A stretch of DNA of 64,000 nucleotides from Nitrosopumilus sp. Lineage in GTDB: Archaea > Thermoproteota > Nitrososphaeria > Nitrososphaerales > Nitrosopumilaceae. A model generated the notes under the pieces. It was given only the letters and a program-made list of their open reading frames with translations. It was not told the origin of the DNA and did not search any database. Shown here one piece after another: positions 20,600 through 39,264 of this stretch. The DNA is taken from positions 832,001-896,000 of the forward strand of contig OZ240211.1 of the NCBI GenBank assembly GCA_965197525.1. Direction: 5' to 3'. The translations under genes and the position numbers were made by a program. Positions within the stretch are counted from its first letter, which is position 1; each line of letters starts with the position of its first letter.

Positions 20600-21018
20600 G
20601 GTTCTGTAAAGTTATAGAGACCTTGGCAATGCTACGAATTACAACGCCAAATAGAATACAAAGCCCAATGGGTCGGGCTCCCACCAGTCGAATATGTAGA
20701 CCCAGAAAACACGAGCAAGACGTGTCCAAGATGCGGAAAGAAACTCCAAGAGGACATGCAACACAGTCGTAAAATGTCGTGTAATAATTGCGGATTGTAC
20801 AGGGATAGAGACATTGTAGCTGCCATGAACATATCACGCAAACCGTCTCCTAGGTTTAGGGATAGTAGAGATGACATAGGTGAAGCGCAGTCCGGTGTTT
20901 TTGAACCGGCGATGATGGAACCCTGCATACCGGTAATCCAGATAGTCGATATGTCAAAGTCAAGTGATAGGAGGATATAACCTGTTAAATCAACAGATAC
21001 CTATAACTTCACAGAACC
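20600..21018 (+). mobile_element. 419-bp GGTTCTGT-family mini-element holding the frameshifted 3' end of tnpB
   Basis: TIR GGTTCTGT(A/G)AAGTTATAG 17/18 (20600-20617 / 21001-21018); interior encodes ELQRQIEYKAQWVGLPP...CNNCG...DRDIVAAMNI homologous to the 6869-8077 TnpB; no TSD seen. Confidence 0.85.
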
Positions 21019-21036
21019 GTTAATAAATGCCGTAAA

Positions 21037-22161
21037 ATGCAAAAGATATGGATGCGCCTATTAGAGTTTCAAGCTAAAGAATTATTTCGAGAGTATGGGA
21101 TCAACCTTCTTGATAGCAAGGCATCAAAGAGCATCGAACAAGGGCGAATACATGCAAAAGAGTTGGGATATCCGTTTGTAATCAAGATTCAAGTGCCAGT
21201 TGGAGGAAGAGGAAAGGCCGGAGGCATTCAAAAATGTCAAAATGATGATGAATTTGAGCTAAGATACCCACAAGTGATGGATTTGAAGATTAAAGGCGAG
21301 AAAGCAAGAGCAATCCTGTTAGAAAAGATGGCAGATATCAAAAAAGAGCTGTACCTTTCTTTGTTTTTGAATCGTTCAAAGAGATGTTACACCATTATTG
21401 CATCAGCTGAAGGCGGAGTCGAGATTGAATCAGTAAAGAATCAGATAATCAAAGAAGTAGGTCTAGGCCACGTATCAGAAGAGTTAGCAAAAGAGGTAGC
21501 CCAAGAGATGGGTCTGCAAGGTAGTAGCACCGCAGAAGGGTTTGTAGATACTCTGATGAAGCTATCAAAACTTACTATTGAGAAAGAGGCAGAATTAGCA
21601 GAGATTAATCCACTTGCCATCATGCAAGACGACTCAGTCATGGCCCTTGATGGAAAATTTGTAACAGATGATAATAGCAATTTTAGACATGACGAATTAC
21701 AAAAATACCAAGAAAAGTCAGAGATTGAAGAACGGGCAGAAAAGAGCGGATTTTCACTAGTAGAACTAGATGGAGATATTGCAGTAGTTGGAAACGGAGC
21801 AGGACTTGTAATGTCTACACTAGATATGTTATCAGATAATGGTGGCAAACCAGCATGCTTCCTAGATGTCGGAGGAGGTGCAACGGCAGAATCAGTATAC
21901 GAAGCACTCACATTAATTAGTAAAATACGCAGGGTAAAGGGAATTCTTGTGAATCTGTATGGTGGGATTGTAAAGACCACGGTAGTTGCAGAAGCATTTC
22001 TTAAAGCATATGAGACTAATCTAATCGATCTGCCGGTATTTGCAAGATTAAAAGGTACAGAGGCAGATAAAGCAAAAGAGATGCTTGATGGGTCTAGAAC
22101 CAAGATATTTGATTCAGTAGAAGACGCAATCAACTCTGCAGTGATGGGAGTAAAGAGATGA
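21037..22161 (+). CDS. sucC: Succinyl-CoA synthetase beta subunit
   Basis: LLEFQAKELF, GGRGKAGG, GNGAGL and LDVGGGA motifs. Confidence 0.95.
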   Translation: MQKIWMRLLEFQAKELFREYGINLLDSKASKSIEQGRIHAKELGYPFVIKIQVPVGGRGKAGGIQKCQNDDEFELRYPQVMDLKIKGEKARAILLEKMADIKKELYLSLFLNRSKRCYTIIASAEGGVEIESVKNQIIKEVGLGHVSEELAKEVAQEMGLQGSSTAEGFVDTLMKLSKLTIEKEAELAEINPLAIMQDDSVMALDGKFVTDDNSNFRHDELQKYQEKSEIEERAEKSGFSLVELDGDIAVVGNGAGLVMSTLDMLSDNGGKPACFLDVGGGATAESVYEALTLISKIRRVKGILVNLYGGIVKTTVVAEAFLKAYETNLIDLPVFARLKGTEADKAKEMLDGSRTKIFDSVEDAINSAVMGVKR

Positions 22162-23075
22162 CTGATATTTTTGCACAACTCAAAGGAGTCCCAAGTGACG
22201 AGGATTACCAAAAAAAAGGGGTAATTGTGCAAGGAATCACAGGAGCATATGGATCATTACACACAAGAAACATGATGACTTATGGCACAAACATAGTTGC
22301 AGGAGTAACACCTGGCAAAGGAGGCCAAAAGTTTGAAGACAAGGTTCCAATATACGATACAATGCAGCAAGCAGTAGATGCAACAGGAGCAAAGATTTCA
22401 ATCATGTTTGTTCCAGCAAAGTATTTCCTAGGAGCGGCAAAAGAAGCATTAGAATCCGGAATCAAACTGCTAGTCGCAATTCCAGAGCATGTTCCAATTA
22501 GAGACACCATGGAGGTATTGAATTTAGCAGATCAGAGAGGGGCAATAATTGTTGGACCAAATACGCCGGGAGTCATGATTCCTGAATTAATCAAGATAGG
22601 GATTATGCCGCCGACACCTTTCAAGGCAGGTAACATAGCAGTACTATCAAAGAGTGGAACATTACTATACGAGATCTCAGATTCTCTCACAAATGCAGGA
22701 TTTGGACAAGCAATTACAATTGGAATCGGAGGCGATCCGATAAATGGCACAAGACTCATTGATGCATTTGACATGATAAAAGACATCTCAGAGTTGGAGG
22801 GTCTAGTAATAGTAGGAGAGATAGGAGGGGATTCTGAAGAGATTTTAGCCCAGAAAATCATAGATTCCGGCTTTAACAAACCTACAGTAGCATACATTGC
22901 AGGCAGAGCAGCACCTAAAGAGAAGAGGATGGGTCATGCAGGAGCAATTGTCATGGGCAACTATGGATCTGCTGAATCCAAGATATCAATGTTCAACAAG
23001 GCAAACATTCCTGTAGCAAAGAGACCTGTTCAAGTGCCCATGCTACTTGCAGGAAAGATGAGAAAATCCGATTAG
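22158..23075 (+). CDS. sucD: Succinyl-CoA synthetase alpha subunit
   Basis: VQGITG, GPNTPG, SKSGTL and MGHAGA (phospho-His) motifs. Confidence 0.95.
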   Translation: MTDIFAQLKGVPSDEDYQKKGVIVQGITGAYGSLHTRNMMTYGTNIVAGVTPGKGGQKFEDKVPIYDTMQQAVDATGAKISIMFVPAKYFLGAAKEALESGIKLLVAIPEHVPIRDTMEVLNLADQRGAIIVGPNTPGVMIPELIKIGIMPPTPFKAGNIAVLSKSGTLLYEISDSLTNAGFGQAITIGIGGDPINGTRLIDAFDMIKDISELEGLVIVGEIGGDSEEILAQKIIDSGFNKPTVAYIAGRAAPKEKRMGHAGAIVMGNYGSAESKISMFNKANIPVAKRPVQVPMLLAGKMRKSD

Positions 23076-23105
23076 AATAAAAGAGAGATACCCGAGTGAT
23101 ATTTA

Positions 23106-23273
23106 ATGCCAATTACTGACCCAGAAAAGAAACGAATAGCACAGCAAGCGCGTCTTGTAATGAAAATATGTTTCAAATGTGGTTGCAGAAATGATATTCA
23201 GGCAACACGATGCAGAAAATGCAGAAATCCATACCTGAGACTAAAGAACAGAAACCTAGGTATCAAAAAGTAA
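23106..23273 (+). CDS. rpl40e: 50S ribosomal protein L40e (not in ORF track)
   Basis: Manual translation MPITDPEKKRIAQQARLVMKICFKCGCRNDIQATRCRKCRNPYLRLKNRNLGIKK. Confidence 0.92.
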   Translation: MPITDPEKKRIAQQARLVMKICFKCGCRNDIQATRCRKCRNPYLRLKNRNLGIKK

Positions 23274-23277
23274 CCAG

Positions 23278-37791: not shown

Positions 37792-37897
37792 ATTGCCCTA
37801 TCGGATTTATGATATTTAACAATGATTATGGATTGTTGGCAGAGATTTTCGTGTTATCAAATCTGTCGATAATTCTATGATATTGTTTGAAAATAAT

Positions 37898-38347
37898 TCA
37901 GATATTTTTTGAAAATGAGAGGGAAGATTGTTCAAAACCAAGATTTAGATAAAAACTATGAGCATCTTTTCGCTGATGTCCAGACTCTAATCTTATCCTA
38001 TGACATTTTTTCTCTTTTGCAAGTGTGATGCAGTAATTGATTAGCTGTTTGCCTATATGCTGATTCCTGTATTTTTCAAGAACTATTAGCTCTGGAATAT
38101 ACATCTCATATGTGACATGATTAAGTCTGGGCAGGAGCACTATGCTAACAACGCCAACAATTTCGACATCGTTTAGCTCTGCGACAACTATTTTTTTGTC
38201 TGGTTGCATTATGTATTTTTTTACTAGCACTCTGAACACATCAACATCTGAATCTGTTTGAGGTTTAGGCCGTCCAAGATTGTACAACAAGCCAAGGATA
38301 ACAGGAATATCGTTGTCTGAAGCCTCTCTAATAACTACATTATTCAT
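37898..38347 (-). CDS. GNAT-family N-acetyltransferase
   Basis: IPELIV...RNQHIGKQL and AHSFYLNLGF motifs. Confidence 0.9.
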   Translation of the reverse strand: MNNVVIREASDNDIPVILGLLYNLGRPKPQTDSDVDVFRVLVKKYIMQPDKKIVVAELNDVEIVGVVSIVLLPRLNHVTYEMYIPELIVLEKYRNQHIGKQLINYCITLAKEKKCHRIRLESGHQRKDAHSFYLNLGFEQSSLSFSKNI

Positions 38348-38415
38348 AAACTAGATTATCTTGTCAGTACTTAAAAATTAGAGTAGCATGATGTACGACT
38401 AAAAAAGATAGCAGT

Positions 38416-38853
38416 CTAGACTAGGCCAGATATAGGTGAAATTGCTGTATAGATAGCCACAGTATAAACACCTTCAAAGATGCTTACAACATCTCCAGTA
38501 ATAGAATCAACATTTCTGATTCTGAATACATATTCATACGATCCGTCTTCTTGGATATCAACTTGTGCAAAATGAACAGGTGAATCATCTTGATATATTT
38601 GAATGATTACAGGATATGCATCGACATGGTTAGTAACGGTACCACTGACTGCTCCCCAAGGAAGTGTATTGTCATGAGGAATATCCATCGTGACTGTTGT
38701 TTTTTCTATACTAATCTCATCGCTAACTGGGGTAACAGTGATCTGATTGGTACCAGCAAAAGTGGCTTGAGGGACCAACACCATAATTGTAAATATCACA
38801 GCAACAGATGTAACTAAAACCGCATTTGATTTGGAGTTCATACCATATTCCAT
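38416..38853 (-). CDS. Secreted hypothetical protein (thaumarchaeal Ig-like)
   Basis: Signal-like N-terminus; PVIIQIY...HFAQV..DGSYEY. Confidence 0.65.
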   Translation of the reverse strand: MEYGMNSKSNAVLVTSVAVIFTIMVLVPQATFAGTNQITVTPVSDEISIEKTTVTMDIPHDNTLPWGAVSGTVTNHVDAYPVIIQIYQDDSPVHFAQVDIQEDGSYEYVFRIRNVDSITGDVVSIFEGVYTVAIYTAISPISGLV

Positions 38854-38886
38854 CTTTCAGACACATTTAAAAAATTTACTACAAAT

Positions 38887-39264
38887 GGTTCTGTTGGGTT
38901 ATCGAGACCTAAAACATAGAAATAAATACTTTTGAATCATTACCATAATTATTGAATAGCACGAACACGCAATGTCCAAGATGCGGAAAGATATTCCAAG
39001 AGGACATGCAATGCAAATGTAATATATCGTGTACTAATTGTGGATTGTTCATTGATATGAACACATCATACAAGCTGTCCCCTAGGTTTAGGGATAGTAG
39101 AGATGACATACATGAAGCGCAGTCCGGCACTTTTGAGCAGGCGATGACGGAACCCAGCACATCATTGGTAATCCGAATAGTCGATATGTCAAAGTCGAGT
39201 TATATGGAGAAGAAATTTTGTTAACAAAACAACAAATTTCAGGTCTCGATAACCCAACAGAACC
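38887..39264 (+). mobile_element. 378-bp GGTTCTGT-family mini-element holding a degenerate tnpB 3' end
   Basis: Perfect 24-bp TIR GGTTCTGTTGGGTTATCGAGACCT (38887-38910 / 39241-39264); 8-bp TSD CTACAAAT (38879-38886 / 39265-39272); interior TQCPRCGK...SPRFRDSRD...IVDMSKSS. Confidence 0.92.

Follow-up and report, generated by a model that had tools for sequence, protein, structure and literature searches.

A 64,000-nt stretch of the Nitrosopumilus sp. genome (contig OZ240211.1, positions 832001 to 896000; hereafter, the window) carries one full-length and two miniature elements in which all or only the 3' part of tnpB lies between terminal inverted repeats (TIRs). The genome, designated G000, consists of a single contig of 2.21 Mb. 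With a probability of roughly 60%, the two miniature elements (minis 1 and 2) are guide-RNA-only miniature inverted-repeat transposable elements (MITEs) that use TnpB in trans, with guides derived from the host DNA flanking their right ends. The reading draws on the observed anatomy and copy numbers of the elements, the covariation of their RNA scaffold, a hairpin rule at their right ends, a one-sided motif in the flank, and empty insertion sites. An earlier note on this DNA had interpreted the minis as cassettes with different guides inside the mobile unit. Its observation was confirmed and its interpretation is partly supported, while a dispersed "mobile guide repertoire" is unlikely.

Boundaries of the tnpB-related elements

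The window contains three tnpB-related elements, namely, one full element on the reverse strand and minis 1 and 2 on the forward strand (Table 1). All three start with GGTTCTGT and end with ACAGAACC, and the 17-mer GTCGATATGTCAAAGTC occurs three times in the window, against an expectation of 0.01. Perfect 8-bp target duplications flank the full element and mini 2; mini 1 has none. The full element has two more genome copies at 95 to 96% identity.

The coordinates and boundaries previously assigned to the minis hold, as does the observation that only the 3' part of tnpB remains in them, amounting to approximately 345 nt in mini 1 and 245 nt in mini 2. Similarity indeed stops at the same point in all three elements. 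BLAST alignments end at window positions 6896, 20968, and 39203, and across all genome copies, similarity to the full element ends at query positions 1280 to 1287. The distance from this conserved block to the end of the element, including the TIR, is 87 nt in the full element, 52 nt in mini 1, and 63 nt in mini 2.

The elements are passengers on IS6-type ends

The tnpB 3' block is present in 51 copies across the genome, approximately 32 of which are full length and 16 truncated. Except in two copies, a stretch that varies in length separates the block from a terminal ...ACAGAACC or a close variant. The exceptions are the copy at 78730, which has no such end within 140 nt, and the copy at 453706, which ends in ACAGAATT. 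Perfect 8-bp target duplications flank 21 block-carrying copies. More than half of the family (29 copies) has no matching 8-bp duplications, and a test for recombination or inversion found no reciprocal flank halves among these 29 copies. Their missing duplications are the only sign, and an indirect one, of copy-in transposition through cointegrates.

An autonomous partner is located at G000 positions 746475 to 748444. This 1,970-bp element, with TIR GGTTCTGTGTAATCTTCGTGATATGG and an 8-bp duplication of its own, encodes a protein of 378 amino acids (aa) with a PF13610 DDE_Tnp_IS240 (IS6-type) domain, and the first 18 nt of its TIR are identical to those of the full element in the window. Given the same TIR, the 8-bp duplication, and this DDE_Tnp_IS240 partner, the tnpB elements are non-autonomous passengers on IS6-type ends. 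They have the features by which IS6-family membership is judged, as non-autonomous members: their TIRs start with GGTTCTG, their target duplications are 8 bp long, and the genome encodes a DDE_Tnp_IS240 transposase between matching ends. Judged by their TIRs of 22 to 25 nt and 8-bp duplications, they do not classify as IS200/IS605 transposons (including the IS1341 group), although no search aimed at a Y1 transposase was made; their cargo is nonetheless TnpB.

Other IS6-like copies with other TIR subtypes are present in the genome; none of the autonomous copies found has exactly the TIR subtype of either mini. The archaeal IS6-type transposase carries an N-terminal SWIM-like zinc finger. The association of tnpB with IS6-type ends recurs in other Nitrosopumilus genomes, in Nitrososphaera, in Bathyarchaeia, in a metagenome-assembled genome of Thermoplasmatota, and in soil metagenomes.

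Mini 2 belongs to a lineage that transposed without the nuclease gene

Mini 2 is one of five copies of 358 to 388 bp (G000 positions 870887, 516420, 548812, 803351, and 2108878) with a single deletion junction, at which the TIR is followed by an AT-rich, TATA-like stretch of approximately 50 nt and then by ..CACGAACACGCAATGTCC. The copies have now diverged to 77 to 90% identity. Because this one junction is common to all five, the lineage transposed as minis. It has the hallmarks of MITEs, being short, bounded by TIRs and a target duplication, devoid of a transposase, and present in several copies with the same internal deletion. Mini 1 is a single copy without a duplication. Relatives hold a contiguous empty site of mini 2, with a single copy of the 8 bp and TTA or TTG before it; a search for closer nucleotide-level synteny at this site yielded only these empty sites, at 74 to 84% identity.

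Retention of the 3' end extends to the whole family. All 16 truncated copies keep the 3' block, with at least eight different junctions that all spare the scaffold described below, and a truncated copy with only the 5' part was not found among the 16. The proposed designation of mobile guide-RNA cassettes stands insofar as the minis are mobilized by their TIRs, lack a protein, keep the scaffold intact, and would need TnpB in trans; the part that places the guide inside the unit is not supported.

An omegaRNA-like scaffold covers the tnpB 3' end and is kept in the minis

As expected of a TnpB/OMEGA system, a structured RNA overlaps the 3' end of tnpB. Over the last approximately 240 nt of the gene, third-codon-position variation drops and codon periodicity is lost. 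An alignment of eleven copies, including relatives that are 63 to 67% identical, was folded with RNAalifold. The consensus contains 32 pairs, 15 of which show compensatory changes. Its parts are hairpin 1 (whose loop, which includes AGGUU, is invariant), a long-range stem (GACAUA:UAUGUC, which is GAUACA:UGUAUC in relatives), hairpin 2, a CGAU:GUCG stem, and hairpin 3 (CGGAACC..GGUAAUCCG). An Rfam scan of the full element gave only chance-level matches, none of them near a gathering score.

The minis keep 30 to 32 of the 32 scaffold pairs, and 97% of their pairs are canonical, compared to the 70 to 82% expected from neutral decay at their divergence, part of which is older than the deletions. 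A cleaner sign of kept pairing is provided by the sister minis 549146 and 803685, which differ at four stem positions in hairpin 2, all of which are still paired.

The full copy encodes a TnpB that matches Pfam family PF07282 (2.7e-19). Its VGVDRN, VLENL, and MDRDV motifs align to TnpB/Cas12f structures in the PDB and provide the D-E-D triad; together with the zinc ribbon, these are found in the full copy only and not in the minis. Similarity to known TnpB/Cas12f proteins is remote (E values of 1e-9 to 1e-12). The genome has approximately 31 open full-length tnpB frames.

The variable segment forms a hairpin with the right TIR

Between the conserved block and the right TIR, the three window elements carry different segments of 35 to 66 nt, which had been taken for guides. 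To characterize these right ends, the stretch from the end of ..UCAAAGU to the end of the element was folded, with shuffled sequences as a control. One closed hairpin, with a lead of at most 3 nt and a tail of 6 to 11 nt, was found in 36 of 46 distinct right ends (shuffles: mean, 3.2; maximum, 7), and the same rule holds in 29 of 32 metagenomic right ends (shuffles: mean, 2.8). The 3' strand of the hairpin corresponds to positions 9 to 15 of the right TIR, the 5' strand starts 0 to 3 nt after ..UCAAAGU, and a constant 8-nt single-stranded tail, (C)ACAGAACC, follows. A sister of mini 2 (c516736) closes its hairpin with a 2-nt lead and a 10-nt tail.

The stem pairs change together between subfamilies (AAGUUAU:AUAACUU, GAGU-AUAGG:CCUAU-ACUU, GUAAUC:GAUUAC, CGGGU:ACCCG, UAACUC:GAGUUA, and CGAGUC:GACUUG), and the hairpin covaries across archaeal phyla. 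In soil metagenome copies, it is nearly constant, at 22 nt, and in genome G021, the TIR directly follows the block. The segments are specific to subfamilies rather than to copies. Mini 1 is 95 to 97% identical, including its supposedly unique segment, to the 3' part of three full-length copies (G000 226216, 428042, and 778338 to 779569). The segment of the full element is common to two other copies, and that of mini 2 also occurs in the second mini at G000 516420. Nor is the break in similarity absolute, as similarity resumes in most subfamilies with AT(A/C)GGRG-like bases and the hairpin rule applies to all of them. The segments thus correspond to the variable tops of a hairpin that is conserved at the element end; a free guide would neither be bound up in a stem that covaries with the transposon end nor remain constant across hosts.

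The target search that had been suggested for the putative guides, including a common adjacent target-adjacent motif (TAM), remained at chance level. In the genome, the internal segments match only the TIRs of the elements themselves, apart from chance matches of 14 to 16 nt; two 16-mer matches of the mini 2 segment fall in unrelated sequence that appears coding by eye, without a common 5' motif. Among viral contigs in IMG/VR, exact 16-mers of the three segments gave 12, 23, and more than 116 matches, which corresponds to chance, and these extend to 17 to 20 nt at most.

Left termini deviate from GGTTCTG in 5 of 10 metagenomic elements with perfect duplications, and right termini deviate from CAGAACC in none of them. 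This count (loci L280, L284, L296, L342, and L351) refers to the unbiased metagenome set only, as a second search is biased by its anchor. It hints at an extra constraint on the right end.

Two further features of the right end were observed. The tnpB frame continues beyond the block into the hairpin or TIR (window positions 6869 to 6899 on the reverse strand, 20961 to 20978, and 39196 to 39218), and the short C-terminal tail of TnpB and its stop codon differ by subfamily; in the commonest (1,288-bp) subfamily, the stop lies inside the TIR. In addition, two 58-bp elements (G000 1581561 to 1581618 and 1607236 to 1607293) consist of little beyond two inverted TIRs of the same family, and the right-end hairpin of the tnpB elements resembles such a mini-palindrome fused to the omegaRNA.

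A one-sided motif abuts the duplicated target

When the elements are oriented by tnpB, the left copy of the duplicated 8 bp is immediately preceded on its 5' side by a W-T-R motif (TTA, TTG, ATA, or ATG). This motif is present in all 20 elements with a perfect duplication and in 31 of the 36 with a left TIR, compared to a genome background of 8.8%. The mirror motif follows the right duplication copy in only 6 of 36 elements. Even among the copies without matching duplications, 11 of the 16 with a left TIR have W-T-R on the left. Metagenomes provide 11 independent insertions with a perfect duplication, and the motif recurs in all of them; relatives show TTG, TTA, TTG, xTG, and TTG, next to one CTA, and the empty orthologous sites of mini 2 have TTA or TTG. 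In contrast, TnpB-less elements with the same kind of ends have W-T-R on 2 of 18 sides. As the two TIRs of one element are identical over 18 to 24 nt, only the cargo gives the element a direction.

In the empty site, W-T-R is followed by the 8 bp and then by the right flank. From its position, W-T-R is where the TAM of TnpB would be expected for a guide taken from the flank outside the right end. In the RNA of ISDra2, stem 4 is followed by a 5- to 6-nt pseudoknot strand and then by the guide (PMC10097598). The order of hairpin, 8-nt tail, and flank matches this arrangement and fits a flank-derived guide. Similarly, Un1Cas12f, whose single guide RNA (sgRNA) is alike in motif order, has TTTR as its protospacer-adjacent motif (PAM), which fits W-T-R as a TAM. 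The hairpin and tail are consistent with read-through, while the likeness to Cas12f points to an earlier start of the guide.

A control set of autonomous IS6-like elements comprised only seven independent elements with clear TIRs and duplications in the fetched flanks. In four of these seven, from other Nitrosopumilus genomes (L030, L043, L051, and L066), AAA stands right after the 8-bp duplication on the 3' side of the transposase. Accessory open reading frames (ORFs) of 143 to 214 aa in the autonomous relatives had no Pfam family match.

Proposed mechanism and alternative readings

The minis are MITE-like, internally deleted derivatives of a non-autonomous element in which IS6-type inverted ends enclose tnpB and its omegaRNA; they have lost the nuclease gene and kept the RNA scaffold. 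In the reading that we favor, the elements are moved by an IS6-family DDE transposase, whose gene lies elsewhere in the genome and which makes the 8-bp target duplications. The RNA most likely reads on past the right TIR into host DNA. Its guide would then consist of the duplicated 8 bp and the adjoining flank, which in the unoccupied site lie directly after W-T-R, the presumed TAM of TnpB. TnpB from the approximately 31 intact copies could load the mini RNA in trans and cut the mini's own empty site, and this cutting would favor copying of the mini by recombination. Read-through transcription, loading in trans, cleavage, and any drive are inferences.

Several points weigh against this reading. 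Mini 1 lacks a duplication, W-T-R, and any AT-rich promoter-like stretch, and it may be inert. Within the mini lineage, the scaffold (86% identity) is conserved no better than the dead tnpB fragment upstream of it (88%), and hairpin 2 is missing from mini 2108910. According to current understanding, IS6-type elements copy in and do not excise, so that a benefit from cutting empty sites is not obvious. The motif frequency of 100% exceeds what a modest drive would give; target choice and post-insertion filtering both fit it. Some transposase-linked asymmetry is possible, given AAA in four of the seven autonomous relatives, and the read-through into the flank is assumed.

Further points concern the start of the guide. 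With the similar Un1Cas12f sgRNA as a model, the guide would begin directly downstream of ..UCAAAGUC, which is the boundary drawn in the earlier note. As a rule, a pseudoknot directly precedes the guide (PMC10097598), and the candidate found here, between the hairpin-2 loop ACUUUUGA and UCAAAGU, shows only wobble changes and one break in the alignment. With flank-derived guides, the RNA would have to tolerate the inserted hairpin or form a second pseudoknot, in which the hairpin-1 loop AGGUU pairs with the terminal AACC. The latter pairing is invariant and so lies outside the reach of covariation.

Alternatively, the minis could be inert deletion remnants for which TnpB has no current role, with W-T-R reflecting a target preference of the transpososome. 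Retention of the 3' end would then result from a cis requirement of the transposase for the right-end hairpin and subterminal DNA or from deletion bias, and the hairpin would act at the DNA level or as a stabilizer or terminator at the RNA 3' end. We regard this as unlikely, even though the state of mini 1, the scaffold conservation and the loss of hairpin 2 in the mini lineage, and the one-sided AAA of the autonomous relatives all speak for it. An inverted inner copy of the TIR in the right end also makes the two ends non-equivalent. However, the TIRs are identical over 18 to 24 nt, so a one-sided 3-nt preference has no obvious basis in them, and TnpB-less elements with such ends rarely show the motif (2 of 18 sides). 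The motif is moreover similar to TTTR, the PAM recognized by the nuclease whose guide RNA comes closest, the stems of the minis are kept paired by compensatory and wobble changes, and at least eight different deletion junctions have all spared the scaffold.

The model of the earlier note, in which the scaffold ends at ..GTCAAAGTC(A/G)AGT, the next 16 to 20 nt inside the element form a portable guide, and the minis spread different guides for TnpB in trans, is very improbable. The same holds for a variant in which the segment, being complementary to the family's own inverted repeat, is a true, fixed guide that tracks it. TnpB would then be an RNA-guided reader of its own transposon end, with minis spreading subfamily-specific guides; we give this little credence, although, if true, TnpB might mark or regulate ends for the IS6 transposase. 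An internal guide would account for the fall in between-subfamily similarity at the block end, and it agrees with the Un1Cas12f sgRNA, which is similar in motif order and has its guide after the equivalent position. It would also agree with the usual place of the pseudoknot directly before the guide, a loop complementary to UCAAAGU being present, and a possible internal hypervariable guide region has been described in Cas1-linked TnpB loci (Altae-Tran et al. 2023, PMC10691335). Against it stand the closed hairpin with the TIR, which covaries across archaeal phyla, the near-constant 22-nt hairpin of the soil relatives, the position of the TIR directly after the block in G021, and the sharing of segments within subfamilies. 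The segments also lack genome targets beyond their own TIR matches, of which those to the left TIR are imperfect in the seed, and viral matches stay at chance level (20 nt at most). Finally, an internal guide leaves the one-sided W-T-R without explanation.

Feature coordinates and neighboring elements

The features of the three elements are listed in Table 1. A fourth element of the same TIR family lies at window positions 51991 to 52841 (851 bp; TIR, GGTTCTGTAACATTATCGGGACGTGAAATTTCA; perfect 8-bp duplication, TATTACTG). Devoid of a tnpB block, it contains only small lysine/glutamate-rich ORFs, one of 96 aa, with TTA on one side. A solo right-end remnant, ..CGCGAATGCAACAGAACC, is found at window positions 24443 to 24467. 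It matches the GGTTCTGTTGCATTCACGAGTGG TIR subtype at 23 of 25 nt and has no partner end nearby.

Table 1. Features of the full element and the two minis (window positions; MFE, minimum free energy)
Feature	Position	Strand	Evidence or remark
Full-length non-autonomous element, 1,347 bp, with IS6-type TIRs and tnpB only	6811..8157	-	TIR pair identical at 22/22 nt; perfect 8-bp duplication
tnpB ORF, 402 aa, intact RuvC D-E-D and zinc ribbon	6869..8077	-	PF07282; PDB alignments
Left TIR of full element, GGTTCTGTGTAATCTTCGGGTG	8136..8157	-	First 18 nt equal the TIR of the autonomous IS6-like element at G000 746475-748444
Right TIR of full element; last 8 nt (6811-6818, ACAGAACC) unpaired, forming the tail	6811..6832	-	TIR comparison, folding
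Left copy of 8-bp target duplication, AAGGGCTG; right copy at 6803-6810	8158..8165	-	
TTA next to the duplicated target of the full element (5' side); one-sided, TAM-like W-T-R	8166..8168	-	
omegaRNA-like scaffold core of full element: hairpin 1, long-range stem, hairpins 2 and 3; end at ..UCAAAGUC	6901..7024	-	RNAalifold
Terminal hairpin of full element (the formerly "unique" segment plus inner TIR)	6819..6900	-	MFE, -21.1 kcal/mol; z, -3.5; 3-nt lead, 8-nt tail
Mini 1, 419 bp; TIRs GGTTCTGTAAAGTTATAGAGACC / GGTTCTGTGAAGTTATAGGTATC; left TIR joined directly to tnpB codon ~278	20600..21018	+	No target duplication; no W-T-R (CTT)
Scaffold of mini 1	20841..20965	+	31/32 consensus pairs canonical
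Terminal hairpin and tail of mini 1	20961..21018	+	Folding (c852966)
Mini 2, 378 bp; 24-nt TIRs, GGTTCTGTTGGGTTATCGAGACCT; TIR, 49-nt AT-rich TATA-like stretch, last ~245 nt of tnpB	38887..39264	+	One of five copies with a common deletion junction
TTA next to the duplicated target of mini 2 (5' side)	38876..38878	+	TTA/TTG at the same place in empty orthologous sites of relatives
Left copy of mini 2 target duplication, CTACAAAT; right copy at 39265-39272	38879..38886	+	
Scaffold of mini 2	39073..39200	+	31/32 pairs canonical
Terminal hairpin region and ACAGAACC tail of mini 2	39196..39264	+	Folding (c871201)
Predicted flank-derived guide of mini 2	39265..39284	+	Position demanded by W-T-R and the target layout in the empty site

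Comparison with known systems

The main text of Altae-Tran et al. (2023, PNAS, PMC10691335) describes DDE-associated TnpB branches (DDE-1 to DDE-6) and solo TnpBs with matching ends. As in those branches, tnpB lies here between inverted terminal repeats, with its 3' end within 250 bp of the transposon end. The ends of the solo TnpBs likewise match those of a transposase-encoding element, implying mobilization in trans. The partner differs, as it belongs here to the IS6 family (DDE_Tnp_IS240), whereas the main text of a 2026 review (PMC13565253) names ISL2, IS630, and IS1031, and not IS6. A hairpin closed by the TIR, a W-T-R motif abutting an 8-bp duplication, and guide-RNA-only minis are not described in the main text of either paper.

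Meers et al. (2023, PMC10055086) described gene-less IS200/IS605 elements, similar to palindrome-associated transposable elements (PATEs), whose omegaRNAs serve TnpB in trans. The minis resemble PATEs in being protein-less, multi-copy, and mobilized in trans, and in keeping the omegaRNA; the PATE guide is taken from the flank (PMC10055086). Both minis are gene-less with the scaffold kept, and their ends are of the IS6 type and not of the IS200/IS605 type. Unlike PATEs, which have IS200/IS605 hairpin ends, no duplication, a Y1 transposase, and scarless excision, the minis have IS6-type TIRs and 8-bp duplications.

Similar to the TnpB of ISDra2 (Nakagawa et al. 2023, PMC10097598), the system combines a RuvC D-E-D triad and zinc ribbon with a scaffold over the gene 3' end and, in the reading favored here, the order of stem, short single strand, and guide. 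By eye, the scaffold also resembles the Un1Cas12f1 sgRNA (bioRxiv 10.1101/2022.10.20.513037) in CTGTCCC..GGGAT.AG, in GTGAAGG/C followed by a hairpin, and in GAACCC..CGAATAG.CGA (GAACCCGAATAG.CGA). On sequence grounds, this suggests that the TnpB clade may lie near one origin of Cas12f. Both systems differ from the present one, in which an extra closed hairpin and an 8-nt tail lie between the Cas12f-equivalent guide start and the flank, and the TAM-like motif is set apart from the element by the duplicated 8 bp.

With the IS6/IS26 family and its MITEs, the elements have in common GGTTCTG ends, 8-bp duplications, DDE_Tnp_IS240, and many copies without matching duplications. In contrast to IS6/IS26 members, they carry an RNA-guided nuclease module as cargo, their flanking motif is one-sided and oriented by the cargo, and the transposase has an N-terminal SWIM-like zinc finger. 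What is new here is the combination of guide-RNA-only MITEs on archaeal IS6-type ends with a candidate for a defined RNA end and, next to the target duplication, a TAM-like motif.

Significance

The accepted role of TnpB is that of a homing nuclease by which IS200/IS605 and IS607 elements, which excise without a scar, are rescued. The use of TnpB to DDE transposons that duplicate their targets is raised as a question in the main text of the above-mentioned review (PMC13565253). For the claim of the earlier note, the main value of the present analysis is corrective, as a mobile guide repertoire is unlikely. The family, which extends from Nitrosopumilus to Bathyarchaeia, offers a testable layout of a TAM-like W-T-R, an 8-bp duplicated target, and a flank, together with a candidate for a defined RNA end in the TIR-closed hairpin and its 8-nt tail. 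The likeness of the scaffold to the Cas12f sgRNA may help to place the clade near one Cas12f origin, and the guide-RNA-only minis show that DDE-type ends can retain the RNA module on its own.

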